Shown here: in pieces, positions 55,820-62,085 of the stretch
Position numbering within the stretch: the stretch's first letter is position 1
Layout: every line of letters starts with the position of its first letter
Assembly (NCBI GenBank): GCA_039186235.1
Contig: JBCDAE010000003.1
Location: 65,934 to 129,933 of the forward strand
Direction: 5' to 3'
Source: Pseudomonadota bacterium
GTDB lineage: Bacteria > Pseudomonadota > Alphaproteobacteria > Sphingomonadales > Sphingomonadaceae
Length of the DNA stretch: 64,000 bases
The notes under the pieces: generated by a model
What the model saw: only the letters and a program-made list of their open reading frames with translations
The model's database searches: none
What the model was told of the DNA's origin: nothing
Program-made: the position numbers and the translations under genes

Positions 55820-57505
55820 TCAGCCTTCGGCGGTTTGCACCACGCTGTTCGCCGCGCTCAGAACCGCGCGCACGCTGGCGGTGGCGACGTCGGTGTCGAT
55901 CCCGCAGCCCCAGATCACGCGGCCGCCGGATTGGCACATCAAATAGGCCGCGGCGCGCGCATCACGACCGGTGCCTAGCGCGTGTTCGGTGTAGTCGAGC
56001 ACTTTGAGATCCAGGTCGAACGCTTGCTCCAACGTGGTGACCACGCTGGAAATCAAGCCGTTGCCCCGGCCCGACACGCTTTGTTCTCCACCTAGCACCG
56101 CAATCTTGCCTGAAAAGACGCGCGTGCCGTCCGAGGCGCGGCTTTCTTCGTAGTCGACCAGTTGAAAGTGCTTGTCCGGCGTTTGCACGTGGTAGGCGCG
56201 TTTGAACGCGTCCCAGATGTCATCCGCGTTAAGCTCGCGCCCCAATTCATCCGCTAGGTTCTGCACCGCGCGGCTGAAATCAGCTTGCATCTTTTTGGGC
56301 AGTTTGAGGCCCTGATCCTTTTCGAGCACCCAGGCGAAGCCGCCTTTGCCGCTTTGCGAATTGACCCGGATGACCGCTTCGTAATTGCGGCCCAGATCGG
56401 CAGGATCAATCGGCAGATAGGGAACGCGCCAGCCTTCGTCGTTCTGCGTTTCGCGGGCTTCGAACCCTTTCTTGATCGCATCCTGATGGCTGCCGGAAAA
56501 GGCGGTGTAGACCAGTTCGCCTCCATAGGGATGGCGCTGGTGGACGGGCAGGTCGTTGCAATATTCGACAGTCTCAATCACGCGGTCGATATCGGAGAAG
56601 TCAAGCCCCGGATCGACGCCCTGGGTGTACATATTAAGCGCCATCGTCACGAGGCAGCAATTGCCCGTGCGCTCTCCATTGCCGAACAAGCACCCTTCGA
56701 CGCGGTCCGCGCCCGCCATCAGGCCCAATTCCGCCGCTGCGACGCCGGTGCCGCGATCGTTATGCGTGTGGAGGCTGATCACCGCGCTCTCGCGATTGGG
56801 CAGATTGCGGCAGAAGTACTCGATCTGGTCGGCGTAGATATTGGGCGTTGCCGCTTCGACTGTGGCTGGAAGATTGAGGATGATGGGCTTTTCGGGCGTG
56901 GGGGCGAGCACTTCCATCACAGCCGCGCACACCTCGATGCTGAAATCGATTTCGGCGGTTGAGAAGGTTTCGGGGCTGTATTGGAAGTTCCAGTCCGTGT
57001 TCGGTTGCTTGGCCGCTTCGTCGCGCATCACCTTTGCGCCCGCCTCAGCAATGCCGCGCACCTCGTCTTTCGACATGCGGAACACGATATCGCGCCAGGC
57101 GGGCGAGACCGCGTTGTAGAGGTGAACGATCGCCTGTTTCGCGCCGGTCAGGCTTTCAAACGAGGTGCGGATCAGGTCTTCGCGCGATTGGGTGAGCACC
57201 TGCACGGTTACATCATCGGGCACAGCGCCCGATTGCACGAGGCCAGAAATAAAGTCGAACTCGGTCGCGCCCGCGCTGGGAAAGCCGATTTCGATCTCCT
57301 TTACCCCGACTTCGACGAGCAGGTCGAAGAAGCGCCGCTTTTTCACCGCGTCCATCGGATCAATGATCGATTGATTTCCGTCGCGCAGATCAGTGGAAAG
57401 CCAGCGTGGCGCCTTCTCAATCAGGCGCGCGGGCCATTGGCGATCGGGCAAATTGATCTGGCCAAAGGCGGCGTATTTGCGGGAGGGGTCTTTCAACATG
57501 GACAT
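55820..57505 (-). CDS. leuA: 2-isopropylmalate synthase
   Basis: [38 protein letters not shown], regulatory GRGNG. Confidence 0.97.
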
Positions 57506-57592
57506 GACGGGTGACTTTTCGCGAGAACGTTTGGGAAGAGCGTTGGGCGGGTCCCTTGGAAGATCAGCCCCGCGCGTCTCACGCCAAAGCCT

Positions 57593-57643
57593 TCACCTCC
57601 AAGGGCGAATAAGTCGTAGGCTAAGGAGCGCAATCGTCGTCAT
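57593..57643 (-). CDS. leuA attenuator leader peptide MTTIALLSLRLIRPWR
   Basis: 16 codons with Leu cluster CTC CTT AGC CTA CGA CTT, ending 87 nt before leuA. Confidence 0.7.
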   Translation of the reverse strand: MTTIALLSLRLIRPWR

Positions 57644-57685
57644 CCGCAGTCTCTTTGCGGAAAAAATCGCGTTGCGCAAGATCGC

Positions 57686-57714
57686 GTGTAACCTTGGGCT
57701 CATGTTGCGCGAAC
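57686..57714 (+). promoter_or_regulatory. ECF sigma promoter (sigmaF/ECF16-like) of YHS gene 1
   Basis: GTGTAACC-N16-CGAAC (GTAACC 57688-57693, CGAA 57710-57713). Confidence 0.7.
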
Positions 57715-57787
57715 TGGCGAGTGTTACCTCGGAAACAGGCATCTGAGGTTTCGATTACGAATTCCATTCCCCAGGAGGAGAATACCA

Positions 57788-58342
57788 ATGAAGACTTCGA
57801 TTTTTGCCCTCGCTCTCGTCGCTGGCCTTGCGGCGTGCTCGGCCCCGGCCGAAACCACGGAAGCCCCCGTTGACGCGATGGCGGCGGAAGCTCCGGCTGA
57901 CGCAGGCCTTTACCGCGATCTTGGCGGCGAAGCGACCGGCCCCGTTTTCCGCAAAGCCAAAGCCGACACGCTCGCCGTATCCGGCTTTGACGTGGTCAGC
58001 TACTTCACCGGCGAAGGCGTCCCCACCGAAGGATCGGAAGAATTCACCGTGCGCTATCAGGGCTACGACTATCTTTTCGCCAGCGCGGAGAACGCCGACA
58101 CCTTTATCGCGGACCCGACCAAGTACGCGCCGGCCTATGGCGGCTATTGCGCCTGGGCGATCGGTGCCAACGACGCCCTCGCGCCGGGTGATCCCAACGT
58201 CTACAAGATCGTCGACGGTACGCTCTATCTGAACTTCAACGAGAGCGTCGCTGAGCGTTGGAACGCTGACATCCCCGGCTTTATCGCCAAGGCGGACACC
58301 AACTATCCGACCCACTCGGCCGATGAGCACTACCAAGACTAA
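57788..58342 (+). CDS. YHS-domain (seleno)protein-family lipoprotein, paralog 1
   Basis: Lipobox LAA-C, AVSGFDVVSYF, APAYGGYCAWA, KIVDGTLYLNFN. Confidence 0.8.
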   Translation: MKTSIFALALVAGLAACSAPAETTEAPVDAMAAEAPADAGLYRDLGGEATGPVFRKAKADTLAVSGFDVVSYFTGEGVPTEGSEEFTVRYQGYDYLFASAENADTFIADPTKYAPAYGGYCAWAIGANDALAPGDPNVYKIVDGTLYLNFNESVAERWNADIPGFIAKADTNYPTHSADEHYQD

Positions 58343-58394
58343 GGCGCGAGCCTAAACGTGTTGAGCTGATGCAACCTCTGGTCGGCTCAAAACG

Positions 58395-58422
58395 AACCCC
58401 CGTCACCGTGGTGGCGGGGGTT
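58395..58422. terminator. Bidirectional intrinsic terminator
   Basis: AACCCCCGTCAC/GTGGCGGGGGTT hairpin between convergent genes. Confidence 0.8.
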
Positions 58423-58428
58423 TCGCGT

Positions 58429-58899
58429 TTAGCCGCAGCGAATGTCGCGGATAATCCCGTCCACCGCGATCATCACGTTCAGGCGTGGGTTGGTGGGATC
58501 GGGTTTGATGTAGTCGCCGCCCGGCGCGATAAAGCGAACTTCGGTCACATCGTTGGCGACTTCGAGAATTTGGGCGCGCACATCGGCGTCGGGCTGTTGG
58601 CCGATGAACTGTCCGAACAGGTTTGCGTTGCACGCCGTGTTGGGGTCGGTCGCGGTGCCGGGGTTGAAAGGGCCTGACGCGATGGTTTCGAGCGGCTCGG
58701 CCACGGTTGGCGCCGCCACGGGCGCGCCGGGCGTCGCCTCAGCAGTTGGCGCGTCGGCCTTCGAAGTTTTCTCGCCGTTGATGCGCGCGGCGTAGTCGTC
58801 CGCCTGGCTGGCGGCCGCGGTGTCTTCCTCCGCCGGAGCGCCGCACGCGGCCAAAGCCAGCAGCGCCGCCGGAACCATGGATTTGCCATGAATCGTCAT
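58429..58899 (-). CDS. Lipoprotein with peptidase-inhibitor I78-like domain
   Basis: Lipobox LAA-C, C..N..GQFIGQ, DP.NPRLNV, terminal IRCG. Confidence 0.75.
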   Translation of the reverse strand: MTIHGKSMVPAALLALAACGAPAEEDTAAASQADDYAARINGEKTSKADAPTAEATPGAPVAAPTVAEPLETIASGPFNPGTATDPNTACNANLFGQFIGQQPDADVRAQILEVANDVTEVRFIAPGGDYIKPDPTNPRLNVMIAVDGIIRDIRCG

Positions 58900-58987
58900 G
58901 TCGTGCCCCAAGACTAAGCCTTCGTGCTCCCCGCGCTAAAGAGACATTTTCGTGTCAGCTTAATGACACGGAGCCCCTCGAGTCTCA

Positions 58988-60136
58988 TCACCGGACTCTC
59001 AAACGGCTGCGTGTCAGCTGATCGACCTTCGTGACGCCCATCAGCCGCATGCCGCGTTCTATCTCGTCCTTGAGCAGGCTAAGCGCCCGCTCAACACCGT
59101 CTTGGCCCGCGGCCGCCAGCGCGTAGAGATAAAGCCGTCCGCCCGAAGCCGCGGTCGCCCCTGTGCACAGCGCTTTCAAAGCGTGCGTCCCGCGCCGCAC
59201 GCCGCCGTCGCAGATAATCTCGATGTCGCCGCCCACCGCGTCAACAATCTCTTCCAATTGGTCGAACGGCGCGCGGCTGCCGTCCAGTTGCCGCCCGCCA
59301 TGGTTCGACAGCATGATCCCATCCGCGCCGATTTCGACCGCGCGGCGCGCGTCAGCGACGCTCATAACGCCTTTGAGCACAAAGGTGCCGCCCCATTGTT
59401 CGCGAATGGAGGCGGCGGTGGACCAATCCATCGAGGTGTCGAGCATCGTGTTGAAATATTCCGCGATGCTGACCGCCTGGCTCGATCCTTCGCTGACATG
59501 CGTGTCGAGATTGGGCAGGCGGAATTTCTCACGAAGGACATAGTCGAGCGTCCACTTGGGTCGCGTGGCGTAGCTCCACACGCTTGCGGGGGTAAAGCGG
59601 GGCGGGGTGGTGAAACCGGAACGCAGACACCGCTCACGCTTGCCCGAAACGATCGTGTCGACCGTCAAAGCCATACAATCGAACTTTGCCGCCTGGCACC
59701 GCTCGATCATGTGCGTGTTGAGCCCCTTGTCCTTGTGAACATAGAGCTGGAACATCTTGGGTCCGCTTGTAAGCGCGGCGATTTCTTCAATCGAACGCGT
59801 AGCGAGGCTGGAAATGCCGAACCACAGCCCGAACTTTTCCGCTGCCTTGGCGACGGCGGTTTCGCCCTGCCAGTGGAACGCGCGCTGGACGGCGGTCGGA
59901 GAAAGCAGCAGGGGCAGGGCGCTCTGGCGGCCAAGGATCGTGCAGGACGTGTCGATTTCGTCCACCCCGGCCAGCACATCTGGCACAAGGTCCACAGCCT
60001 CATAGGCCACGGTGTTGCGCGCTTTGGTCAGCTCGTCATCCGCCGCGCCATCGATGTAATCGAACACCGGGAAGGGCAGCCGCTTCTTCGCCAGCGTGCG
60101 AAAATCGTCGATATTATGACAGTCTGAGAGGCGCAT
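58988..60136 (-). CDS. lldD: FMN-dependent alpha-hydroxy-acid oxidase / L-lactate dehydrogenase
   Basis: FDYIDGAA, FQLY, LSNHGGRQLD, DGGVRRGT; substrate not determinable from sequence. Confidence 0.85.
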   Translation of the reverse strand: MRLSDCHNIDDFRTLAKKRLPFPVFDYIDGAADDELTKARNTVAYEAVDLVPDVLAGVDEIDTSCTILGRQSALPLLLSPTAVQRAFHWQGETAVAKAAEKFGLWFGISSLATRSIEEIAALTSGPKMFQLYVHKDKGLNTHMIERCQAAKFDCMALTVDTIVSGKRERCLRSGFTTPPRFTPASVWSYATRPKWTLDYVLREKFRLPNLDTHVSEGSSQAVSIAEYFNTMLDTSMDWSTAASIREQWGGTFVLKGVMSVADARRAVEIGADGIMLSNHGGRQLDGSRAPFDQLEEIVDAVGGDIEIICDGGVRRGTHALKALCTGATAASGGRLYLYALAAAGQDGVERALSLLKDEIERGMRLMGVTKVDQLTRSRLRVR

Positions 60137-60227
60137 AGCTGCCCGAGCCTCTGGCCGATTGCGCTTTCCAAGTCGACCCTTTCCGCTTGGGCGCGGCGCT
60201 TCGACGCATACTTTTTTTTGAAAGACA

Positions 60228-60256
60228 GTGTCACCAATCGGGCGGGCGCTGCGAAC
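60228..60256 (+). promoter_or_regulatory. ECF sigma promoter (sigmaF/ECF16-like) of YHS gene 2 / Cys-rich operon
   Basis: GTGTCACC-N16-CGAAC (GTCACC 60230-60235, CGAA 60252-60255). Confidence 0.68.
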
Positions 60257-60264
60257 ACTTGGAT

Positions 60265-60367
60265 GTGAGCGGCCATCGGGCGGCGATCGATGAACAAAGC
60301 GCTGGTCCCCTGCCGGCACTCCCCTGACACCCCTTGTTCATCGAGGTGACCGTCCGATGGCTCTCGC
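60265..60367 (+). other. Long stem-loop in predicted 5' UTR
   Basis: GCCATCGGGCGG/CCGTCCGATGGC and TCGATGAACAA/TTGTTCATCGA arms around a C-rich loop. Confidence 0.75.
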
Positions 60368-60397
60368 GCAGGCTCAGATCCCCAGGAGAACCCAAGA

Positions 60398-60883
60398 ATG
60401 AAACTTCAAACCCTTTTGTTGGCCGCCGCAGTGCTCGCTGCTCCGCTGGCGATTTCGGCCCCGGCTCACGCCGATGGCGGCGTGTTTGTTGGCGTCGAAG
60501 GCCAAAACATTGCCGTGAGCGGCTATGACACCGTCAGCTATTTCCAGGGCGACGGCGTGCCGGTCAAAGGCGACGCGCGCTTCGCGGTCAAATATGACGG
60601 CGCGGTCTGGCATTTTGCCAATCAAGCCAACGCCGACGCGTTCAAGGCCAATCCCAACGCCTACGCCCCCCGCTATGGTGGCCACTGCGCGTGGGCACTT
60701 GGAGCAAATGGTGCGCTCGCACCGGGCGATCCCAAGCTCTACAAGATCGTCGACGGCAAGCTCTACCTGAACTTCAACAAGAACGTTCAGAACCGTTGGC
60801 TCAAGAACATTTCCGGCTTCATCAGCAAAGCGAACGTCGCGTGGGCGGATACGCCCGACGGCAAAGTCTTCGGCGACAGCTGA
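60398..60883 (+). CDS. YHS-domain (seleno)protein-family exported protein, paralog 2
   Basis: Signal peptide AHA-D, AVSGYDTVSYF, APRYGGHCAWA, KIVDGKLYLNFN. Confidence 0.82.
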   Translation: MKLQTLLLAAAVLAAPLAISAPAHADGGVFVGVEGQNIAVSGYDTVSYFQGDGVPVKGDARFAVKYDGAVWHFANQANADAFKANPNAYAPRYGGHCAWALGANGALAPGDPKLYKIVDGKLYLNFNKNVQNRWLKNISGFISKANVAWADTPDGKVFGDS

Positions 60884-60919
60884 GCCGGTCAAACTTCACT
60901 TTTTCAAAGGATTGATACC

Positions 60920-61297
60920 ATGACAAAACCCGTTTCCCTTACCCGCCTTTTGATGGTCGCTGGTGGCCTTGCCGTCACGACAGCGGCGGCTCCCACCTTT
61001 GCCAGCGGTCAATGCGCTCCGGCGACGTGCACGGTGGCCGCGTGCTCGGCGTGCAGCGCGTGTTCGGCGTGCGACGCGTCGGCCTGCGACGCTTCAGGAT
61101 GTGACGCCTCAGCATGTGCAGCCGCAGGTTGTGCGGCGGCGGCCTGTGCGGCTTCGACCTGTGCAGCCTCGGCTTGTGCCGCTTCGGCTTGTGGCGCGGA
61201 CGCTTGCGCGGCGAGCGCGTGCGACGCGGCAGCATGTTCAGCGGCGGCTTGCTCGGCAAGCCCCTGCGACGCAGCGGATTGCGCACCGGCTGCCTGA
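60920..61297 (+). CDS. Secreted Cys-rich pentapeptide-repeat protein (20 Cys)
   Basis: AAGGA RBS, 28-aa signal peptide, 17 C-x4 units and 3 CSA units; synonymous codon variation between repeats. Confidence 0.8.
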   Translation: MTKPVSLTRLLMVAGGLAVTTAAAPTFASGQCAPATCTVAACSACSACSACDASACDASGCDASACAAAGCAAAACAASTCAASACAASACGADACAASACDAAACSAAACSASPCDAADCAPAA

Positions 61298-61440
61298 CGG
61301 TGCGTGTCCTGGTGTGGCCGGGGTGAACGCTCCTCCTAGTTGATCTCCGGTCACACCTTTTTTCCAAGCTTGGCCTTGGAAGGATGGCAGCCATTTCAGG
61401 AGGTTGCTTCGTGCATGTGTGCCTCTTTGCACGGAGCTTT

Positions 61441-61486
61441 GGCCCGCAAGACCCCAGCGCTTAGGGGCCTTGCGGGCCCTTTTTTT
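61441..61486 (+). terminator. Intrinsic terminator of the YHS2/Cys-rich operon
   Basis: GGCCCGCAAG/CTTGCGGGCC 10-bp stem, inner CCCC/GGGG, then a T7 run. Confidence 0.9.
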
Positions 61487-61488
61487 GA

Positions 61489-62085
61489 TCAGCAGCTGGG
61501 GTTCGCGCCCAACTGGCGCGCGGTGAGATCTTCATAACTGTAGCGCTGTTCGGGCTCGAAGTCGGGGCAGGGCCGATAGTTTGGGTCTTGCGCCAGACAG
61601 CCCGGCCCGCAGATCTGGATCGCGGTGGGGCCGCGCGCGTCGACACGCCAAAAGCGCCCGCCCGGTGTCGCGACATAGCCGTCCATTCCGCTTGAGGCGT
61701 CGCTGGCCAAATCCTGAAGCGAGGGCACTTCGCTGTCATAGGCCGCGTTTTGCGCGGCGTGGGTGTGAAAGCTGGCAATGGGGCGCATTCCGGGTTCATC
61801 AAAATACGCAATGCCGCAGCTGGCCTCGTCCCCTTGGCGGGTGGGGGACGCGCCCAAACTGCCATCGCTGCGTTCAAAGATGATGCCGCACAGTTCGACA
61901 TCCTGGGCAAAGCTCTGTTGTTGCAGCGCGTTAAGCTGAATGCGCGCGAAGGCTTGCACCTCCTCCTGCGTCACCGTGATGATGAAATCGTCGGCGCCCT
62001 TGGTGTTCATGATCCCGCGCGCGACAATCCCCGCCCAGACAAGCGCCATCAGGATGAACAGTATGCGGGTGGTGCGGGCGCTCAT
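61489..62085 (-). CDS. Membrane-anchored DUF4329-like protein
   Basis: N-terminal TM, ELCG, ASFHTH, PSLQD, GYVATPGGR. Confidence 0.75.
   Translation of the reverse strand: MSARTTRILFILMALVWAGIVARGIMNTKGADDFIITVTQEEVQAFARIQLNALQQQSFAQDVELCGIIFERSDGSLGASPTRQGDEASCGIAYFDEPGMRPIASFHTHAAQNAAYDSEVPSLQDLASDASSGMDGYVATPGGRFWRVDARGPTAIQICGPGCLAQDPNYRPCPDFEPEQRYSYEDLTARQLGANPSC

Follow-up and report, generated by a model that had tools for sequence, protein, structure and literature searches.

What transcribes the two paralogous genes for YHS-domain proteins, YHS1 and YHS2, is the question raised by the 64,000-nucleotide (nt) stretch of Erythrobacter DNA (Sphingomonadales) analyzed here, hereafter called the window (C3:65934-129933 within a 2.94-Mb assembly, 60% G+C). 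A sequence-only reading of the window had proposed that the two genes are preceded by similar promoters with unrelated spacers, with cores at 57688-57713 and 60230-60255, and had assigned them to SigF, a sigma factor of the extracytoplasmic function group 16 (ECF16). Both cores were exact when the sequence was read again. On the + strand, the YHS1 site is GTGTAACC-N16-CGAAC (57686-57714) and the YHS2 site is GTGTCACC-N16-CGAAC (60228-60256), and their 16-nt spacers agree no more than at the chance level (4 of 16 positions), which confirms the earlier description. The genes downstream were also identified correctly, since both open reading frames (ORFs) score above the cut-offs of Pfam PF04945 (31.3 bits for YHS1 and 36.0 bits for YHS2, cut-off 30.3) and of the NCBIfam family NF041384, 'YHS domain-containing (seleno)protein' (140.3 and 142.5 bits, cut-off 70). 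From the comparisons described below, we consider it very probable that both sites are SigF-type promoters, and the assignment is less certain for YHS2 than for YHS1 because of a variant in its -35 box.

The YHS1 site is composed of the -35 box TGTAACC (57687-57693), recognized from the sequence, a matrix scan and ortholog conservation, and the -10 box GCGAAC (57709-57714), located 16 nt past GTAACC, and the predicted transcription start is approximately at 57719-57722. At the YHS2 site, the sequence and ortholog conservation mark TGTCACC, a variant of TGTAACC, as the -35 box (60229-60235); the -10 box is again GCGAAC (60251-60256), and transcription would start approximately at 60261-60264. 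The SigF motif GTAACC-N16-CGAA has been validated by rapid amplification of cDNA 5′ ends (5′ RACE) and promoter fusions (PMC3511200). According to this published criterion, the YHS1 site is exact and the YHS2 site deviates at one base (GTCACC); the search by Kohler et al. (2012) tolerated two substitutions in the motif (PMC3511200). A sigma-70-like consensus scan of both intergenic regions gave no candidate.

Inspection of the orthologs showed that the boxes are kept while the sequences between them drift. Upstream of the YHS1 orthologs in the genus, TGTAAC[C/T/G]-N16-[G/C]CGAA was found in 30 of 30 cases (22 exact, 8 with one mismatch in the -35 box); the start codon follows 71-123 nt later, and the spacers have diverged. 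For YHS2, 48 of approximately 51 orthologous loci in Erythrobacter and neighbouring Sphingomonadales match TG[T/A][C/A]ACC-N16-GCGAA, and in these 48 promoters the spacer is nearly information-free and a AAATTTTTTT tract is kept 10-19 nt 5′ of the boxes. In the window, a T-tract resembling an UP element (60212-60219, + strand) lies 10-17 nt 5′ of the YHS2 -35 box, and an A-tract (57661-57666, + strand), possibly UP-element-like and weakly conserved in the orthologs, lies approximately 21-26 nt 5′ of the YHS1 -35 box; an A/T tract also precedes the -35 box of bufA, in the sigF operon described next. Nothing similar to the boxes was found upstream of more distant YHS homologs in gammaproteobacteria and other groups.

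The genome encodes a cognate pair for such promoters. It has a single gene for the anti-sigma factor NrsF (PF06532/DUF1109; C23:31896-32528, 115 bits, cut-off 26.8), and directly 5′ of it lies a gene for an ECF sigma factor of 176 amino acids (Sigma70_r2/r4_2/ECF; C23:31324-31854). The gene order is bufA, doxX, sigF and nrsF, which encode a DUF2282 bufferin-type precursor, DoxX, the sigma factor and NrsF, apparently as one unit. Cys143 and Cys193 of NrsF are 50 residues apart, as are the reference pairs C131/C181 of Caulobacter (PMC3511200) and C129/C179 of Brucella (PMC8315932), the comparison being one of spacing alone without alignment. Between the divergent DUF692 and DUF2282 genes, SigF-type sites stand back to back at C23:30314(-) and C23:30400(+). 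The leftward one, TGTAACG-N16-CGAA, faces the DUF692 gene, and the rightward one faces bufA-doxX-sigF-nrsF, with TGTAACC-N16-CGAA at C23:30402, approximately 85 nt 5′ of the likeliest start codon of the DUF2282 gene. The genome has 13 sigma-like genes, approximately 10 of the others being ECF-like, and among the operons of these sigma genes, only bufA-doxX-sigF-nrsF has the motif upstream. In relatives, TGTAAC[C/T/G]-N16-CGAA is located 5′ of sigF in approximately 13-15 of the 18 examined.

A genome-wide motif scan, which the sequence-only reading had asked for, was run with an independent matrix built from 15 sigF-operon promoters of other genomes' loci, with no YHS site in the training set. 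In this 2.9-Mb genome, the YHS1 site was the best of approximately 5.9 million positions, with 24.8 bits. All of the top eight hits are located approximately 25-105 nt 5′ of same-strand genes, and their targets are YHS1, a thioredoxin gene with CcdA/DsbD_TM, bufA-doxX-sigF-nrsF, and genes for DUF2147, DUF1223, DUF692, an outer-membrane beta-barrel protein and one protein of 454 amino acids, that is, mostly envelope thiol/metal genes. A DsbD-like protein, whose site also has the TGTCACC form, and a fusion of VTT/DedA with a flavoprotein disulfide reductase are plausible weaker members.

Occurrence of the motif largely tracks the presence of sigF-nrsF. The genus sample consisted of 151 genomes, 130 with NrsF and 81 with a YHS gene, and NrsF was found in 77 of the 81 YHS-positive genomes vs 53 of the 70 YHS-negative ones (odds ratio approximately 6, uncorrected for phylogeny). 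Three genomes with sigF had 4-5 matches to the exact pattern TGTAACC-N15-GCGAA and six without sigF had 0-1, and reversed-pattern controls gave 0-2. Among 16 genomes from other families of the order, none had NrsF, and the eight that had YHS homologs did so without the motif. The cognate sigma/NrsF pair, the matrix scan, the conserved footprints and this co-occurrence together support the earlier SigF/ECF16 reading. Detectable NrsF is lacking in four YHS-positive genomes; in one of them (G143) sigF is truncated by the contig end, another (G077) is a 69% complete assembly, and the remaining two, G061 and G121, are considered below.

That the two sites resemble each other by chance, or as a remnant of the duplication that formed the paralogs, can practically be dismissed. 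The window holds two sites, and the extended pattern TGTMACC-N15-GCGAAC (M, A or C) was defined only once both were known, and these points would speak for chance; yet its two matches compare with 0.00 expected, and none of 100 shuffles had any match. For GTMACC-N16-CGAA, the 2 matches compare with 0.23 expected and one of the 100 shuffles reached at least 2, in agreement with the earlier claim that the pair is not accidental. The paralogs are approximately 50-54% identical and neither the spacers nor the flanks of the sites are related, which argues against a remnant, and both versions are refuted by the retention of the boxes in 30 of 30 and 48 of approximately 51 orthologs. It is also very unlikely that the bipartite motif is not a promoter but an operator bound by a DNA-binding regulator. 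A pair of conserved blocks with constant spacing could conceivably form a two-half-site operator, but the blocks are neither direct nor inverted repeats of one another, the motif is strand-specific and always faces a gene whose start is approximately 25-200 nt away, it matches the experimentally mapped -35 and -10 boxes of Caulobacter (PMC3511200), and no alternative sigma-70 promoter is apparent.

Another ECF sigma factor of overlapping specificity might read one or both sites, more likely those with the TGTCACC/TGAAACC variant (YHS2 and the DsbD-like gene), and several results weigh for it and against SigF. Every sigF-operon promoter seen has GTAAC[C/T/G], as do the YHS1 promoters, whereas nearly all YHS2 orthologs have GTCACC or GAAACC, and with the GTAACC-trained matrix the YHS2 site scored 12.8 bits and ranked 48th; the low score arises because the training promoters have no C at the third position of the -35 box. 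The number of TGTCACC matches does not distinguish genomes with sigF from those without it, the latter having 0-4. The NCBIfam equivalog cut-offs were not reached by the sigma factor or by NrsF. In G061 (99% complete, 50 contigs), five TGTAACC sites were found, some of them 5′ of genes for a bufferin precursor, DUF1223 and YHS1, and no sigF or nrsF was detected. In G121, a complete closed 2.3-Mb genome, neither sigF-nrsF nor any TGTAACC site was detected, yet TGTCACC-N16-GCGAAC is kept 61 nt 5′ of YHS1. The sites in these two genomes may be due either to a gap in the assembly or to a different sigma factor, and the approximately 10 further ECF-like genes of the present genome would provide candidates for the latter. 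Against this alternative, however, no related motif was found upstream of the remaining sigma genes, sigF-operon promoters have the same GCGAAC -10 box and 16-nt spacing, and NrsF accompanies the YHS genes in all but the four genomes mentioned. In addition, the surplus TGTCACC matches of sigF-negative genomes are mostly inside coding sequence, while the conserved non-coding ones all belong to YHS2, YHS1 or DsbD-like genes and, with a single exception, come from sigF-positive genomes. We therefore regard reading by another sigma factor as unlikely for the sites taken together, and the possibility of a second sigma factor for the TGTCACC form is kept alive by the G061 and G121 exceptions and by the consistent -35 difference of YHS2.

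If both sites are SigF promoters, a single SigF would be held at the membrane by NrsF, whose Cys143 and Cys193 have the spacing of the signal-relevant pair in Caulobacter and Brucella, and would be freed by envelope stress; the characterized relatives respond to copper, cadmium, chromate or hypochlorite. RNA polymerase with SigF would then bind the TGT(A/C)ACC -35 box and the GCGAAC -10 box 16 nt apart, probably helped by the upstream A/T tract. Two transcription units would result within the window, one being a monocistronic YHS1 mRNA, which encodes the lipoprotein, and the other containing a rod-like leader of approximately 125 nt, YHS2, a secreted peptide with Cys at every fifth residue, and a terminator hairpin. 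Both would belong to a regulon of approximately 10 operons with envelope thiol/metal functions, whose predicted members include bufferin precursor-DoxX-SigF-NrsF, the divergent DUF692 gene, thioredoxin-CcdA, the DsbD-like protein, DUF1223 and DUF2147. The transcription starts, the SigF dependence and the inducing signal are what we infer from the sequence in this scheme.

The second promoter is followed by an RNA element, a structured 5′ leader of approximately 125 nt (60262-60381, + strand) identified by folding and covariation. The 136 nt up to the YHS2 start codon fold into a rod with a minimum free energy (MFE) of -60.7 kcal/mol (z = -4.0); in contrast to YHS2, the YHS1 leader showed no significant structure (z = -1.0). 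The outer helix comprises 21 pairs between approximately 60264-60285 and 60348-60369, and the MFE folds contain an inner hairpin with a UCCCCUG loop (approximately 60300-60317) and an unpaired segment CUCCCCUGACA (approximately 60319-60329). When the leaders of 38 orthologs were folded independently, all 38 had the long outer helix and the inner hairpin with a C-rich loop (xCCCCUG), followed by an unpaired CCCCUGACGA segment and then the Shine-Dalgarno (SD) sequence. In the alignment, 87.5% of the outer-helix cells were paired, compared with at most 41% when the partners were slid, 14 of the 21 pairs showed compensatory double changes, and none of 500 shuffles reached the covariation score. 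The outer helix alone was resolved by MAFFT/RNAalifold, and the inner hairpin and the junction are seen in the 38 MFE folds, not in column-wise covariation. A conserved block GATGTGCGCGGCCA (GATGTG(C/A)GCGG) starts 6-7 nt past the CGAA of the YHS2 -10 box, so that the 5′ end of the leader agrees with the transcription start expected from the promoter, which the sequence-only reading had placed near 60261. This genome has one copy of the element. With a covariance model it was detected in 53 of the 151 genomes of the genus, 52 having one copy and G070 a second, partial match, and the matches were always directly downstream of the promoter. An Rfam scan of 57400-61400 on both strands (E <= 5) gave no match for the leader or for the 3′ hairpin described below.

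At its 3′ end (61280-61364, + strand), the YHS2 operon has a hairpin spanning the stop codon of the Cys-rich peptide gene, GCGCACCG..CGGTGCGT, and then a terminator hairpin, GGTGTGGCCGG..CUCCUCCUAG..CCGGTCACACC followed by T6, whose loop CUCCUCCUAG contains an anti-SD-like CCUCCU. The 3′ element, with compensatory changes in the stem, recurs at 17 or more of 39 orthologous loci and at six loci where tblastn detected neither a YHS2 nor a Cys-peptide gene (G006, G012, G088, G090, G106 and G108). These six gene-less loci retain the promoter boxes, the covarying leader helix and the 3′ hairpins/terminator, with the RNA parts approximately 45-105 nt apart, and the remnants between them are mutually unalignable and have different deletion end points. 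Four of the gene-less genomes could be placed on a YHS1 tree, which is built from one short gene and moderately supported, and they are interspersed with lineages that have the complete operon. That the ORFs were lost repeatedly while the RNA parts stayed suggests an independent function for the RNA, and the 3′ terminator hairpin element is a possible small RNA derived from the 3′ untranslated region. The second promoter may even be conserved for the sake of the RNA and not of YHS2, that is, for a stand-alone SigF-dependent riboregulator, possibly acting with the 3′ hairpin, but we hold this only tentatively and think it less probable than not.

Stress sigma factors that drive structured RNAs are represented by the enterobacterial sigma-E-dependent small RNAs RybB, MicA and MicL, and the alphaproteobacterial CcsR or 'cuckoo' RNAs have CCUCCUCCC loops. 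The leader resembles them in its predicted control by a stress sigma factor and in its C-rich, anti-SD-like single-stranded loops, and it is kept even without a following ORF. It differs in that it, like the 3′ hairpin, matched no Rfam family. We know of no ECF16-dependent small RNA. If the proposal is true, the YHS2-leader riboregulator would give the ECF16 envelope-stress response its first small RNA arm, comparable to RybB, MicA and MicL under sigma-E, and a structured RNA that persists without coding genes is a candidate for this missing arm of the family.

We next compared the predicted regulon with the ECF16 systems reported elsewhere. The SigF-NrsF system of Caulobacter crescentus/vibrioides (PMC3511200, PMC11626156) agrees in the GTAACC-N16-CGAA motif, which its sigma operon also carries, in the order of the sigma gene followed by DUF1109/NrsF, in the 50-residue distance of the NrsF cysteines, and in the presence of DUF2282 bufferin precursor, DUF692 and DoxX genes in the regulon. 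The Caulobacter regulon has 8 genes without a YHS gene (PMC3511200), whereas two YHS genes are found here, together with the Cys-every-fifth peptide, thioredoxin-CcdA, the DsbD-like protein, DUF1223 and DUF2147 as further additions. The bufferin gene set is one operon in Caulobacter, while here DUF692 is divergent from the apparent bufA-doxX-sigF-nrsF unit, and one promoter here has GTCACC and heads a structured RNA. In BcrS-AbcS of Brucella melitensis and SigF-NrsF of Azospira suillum, which are hypochlorite-responsive ECF16 systems (PMC8315932), a sigma/NrsF-type pair controls a secreted residue-biased peptide, as is predicted here. Their peptide is the Met-rich MXKDX, thought to be a sacrificial sink alongside a periplasmic repair system (PMC8315932); the peptide here is Cys-rich, and its partner is a YHS-domain protein in place of MsrPQ. 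RpoE7-EcfR7 of Sinorhizobium meliloti (ECF16; PMC6180224) shares the ECF16-type promoter motif and apparent autoregulation. Its reported regulon is small, consisting of its own operon and a divergent four-gene operon that was equated with Caulobacter CC3254-CC3257, the later buf1 operon, and YHS is not mentioned (PMC6180224).

ECF16 regulons elsewhere include bufferins and sacrificial Met-rich peptides (PMC11626156, PMC8315932), and YHS proteins are unmentioned in the four ECF16 papers PMC3511200, PMC11626156, PMC8315932 and PMC6180224. Our literature search found no paper naming both NrsF and YHS, and none giving a role to genes of the YHS (seleno)protein family or to the Cys-every-fifth peptide. 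The two promoters would thus add members to a known type of regulon, so far known mainly from bufferin and methionine-sulfoxide-repair genes, and extend it to the YHS family and the Cys-every-fifth peptide; the conserved RNA with a predicted SigF promoter is the more surprising element. The YHS and Cys-peptide genes thereby gain a testable physiological setting, namely envelope copper, thiol or oxidant stress, and the whole regulon becomes readable from sequence in a non-model marine genus.

YHS1 (57788-58342, + strand) encodes a YHS-domain protein of 184 amino acids, a probable lipoprotein with the lipobox LAAC read from the translation, and is monocistronic. On its 3′ side, a hairpin CCCCCGTCACC/GGTGGCGGGGG followed by TTT (approximately 58390-58425) lies between convergent genes. 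On the - strand, a small hairpin with a T-run (TTGCGCAACGCGA TTTTTTCC; 57657-57680) overlaps the A-tract 5′ of the YHS1 -35 box. The intergenic region that contains it lies between YHS1 and the divergently oriented leuA (55820-57505).

YHS2 (60398-60883, + strand) encodes a secreted YHS-domain protein of 161 amino acids with a Sec signal peptide ending in AHA-D, and is preceded by the SD sequence AGGAGA (60384-60389, + strand), kept as CAGGAG/TGGAG in the orthologs. One YHS2 ortholog (G149, C1:345486-345989) is reported with an in-frame TAG. A pseudogene or an error in sequencing is the probable explanation, because the selenoprotein members after which the family is named would use TGA.

The second gene of the operon (60920-61297, + strand) is an ORF for a secreted peptide of 125 amino acids with approximately 20 Cys at every fifth residue. 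A Cys-rich ORF is found downstream of YHS2 in approximately 44 of 48 orthologous loci, 46 having passed the filter of at least 6 Cys and 2 of those being doubtful. The peptide matched no Pfam family at the threshold used and no NCBIfam family at E <= 0.001. It is strongly variable among relatives, with CAASA/CAAAA repeats here and CAANP in others, and a Lys/Arg-rich 'ERKARK' linker, present in many relatives, is absent here. Past the operon (61365-61490), a second terminator-like hairpin on the + strand (61463-61481), followed by T7, is located approximately 100 nt past the first one and just before the stop codon of a convergent DUF4329 gene (61489-62085, - strand).

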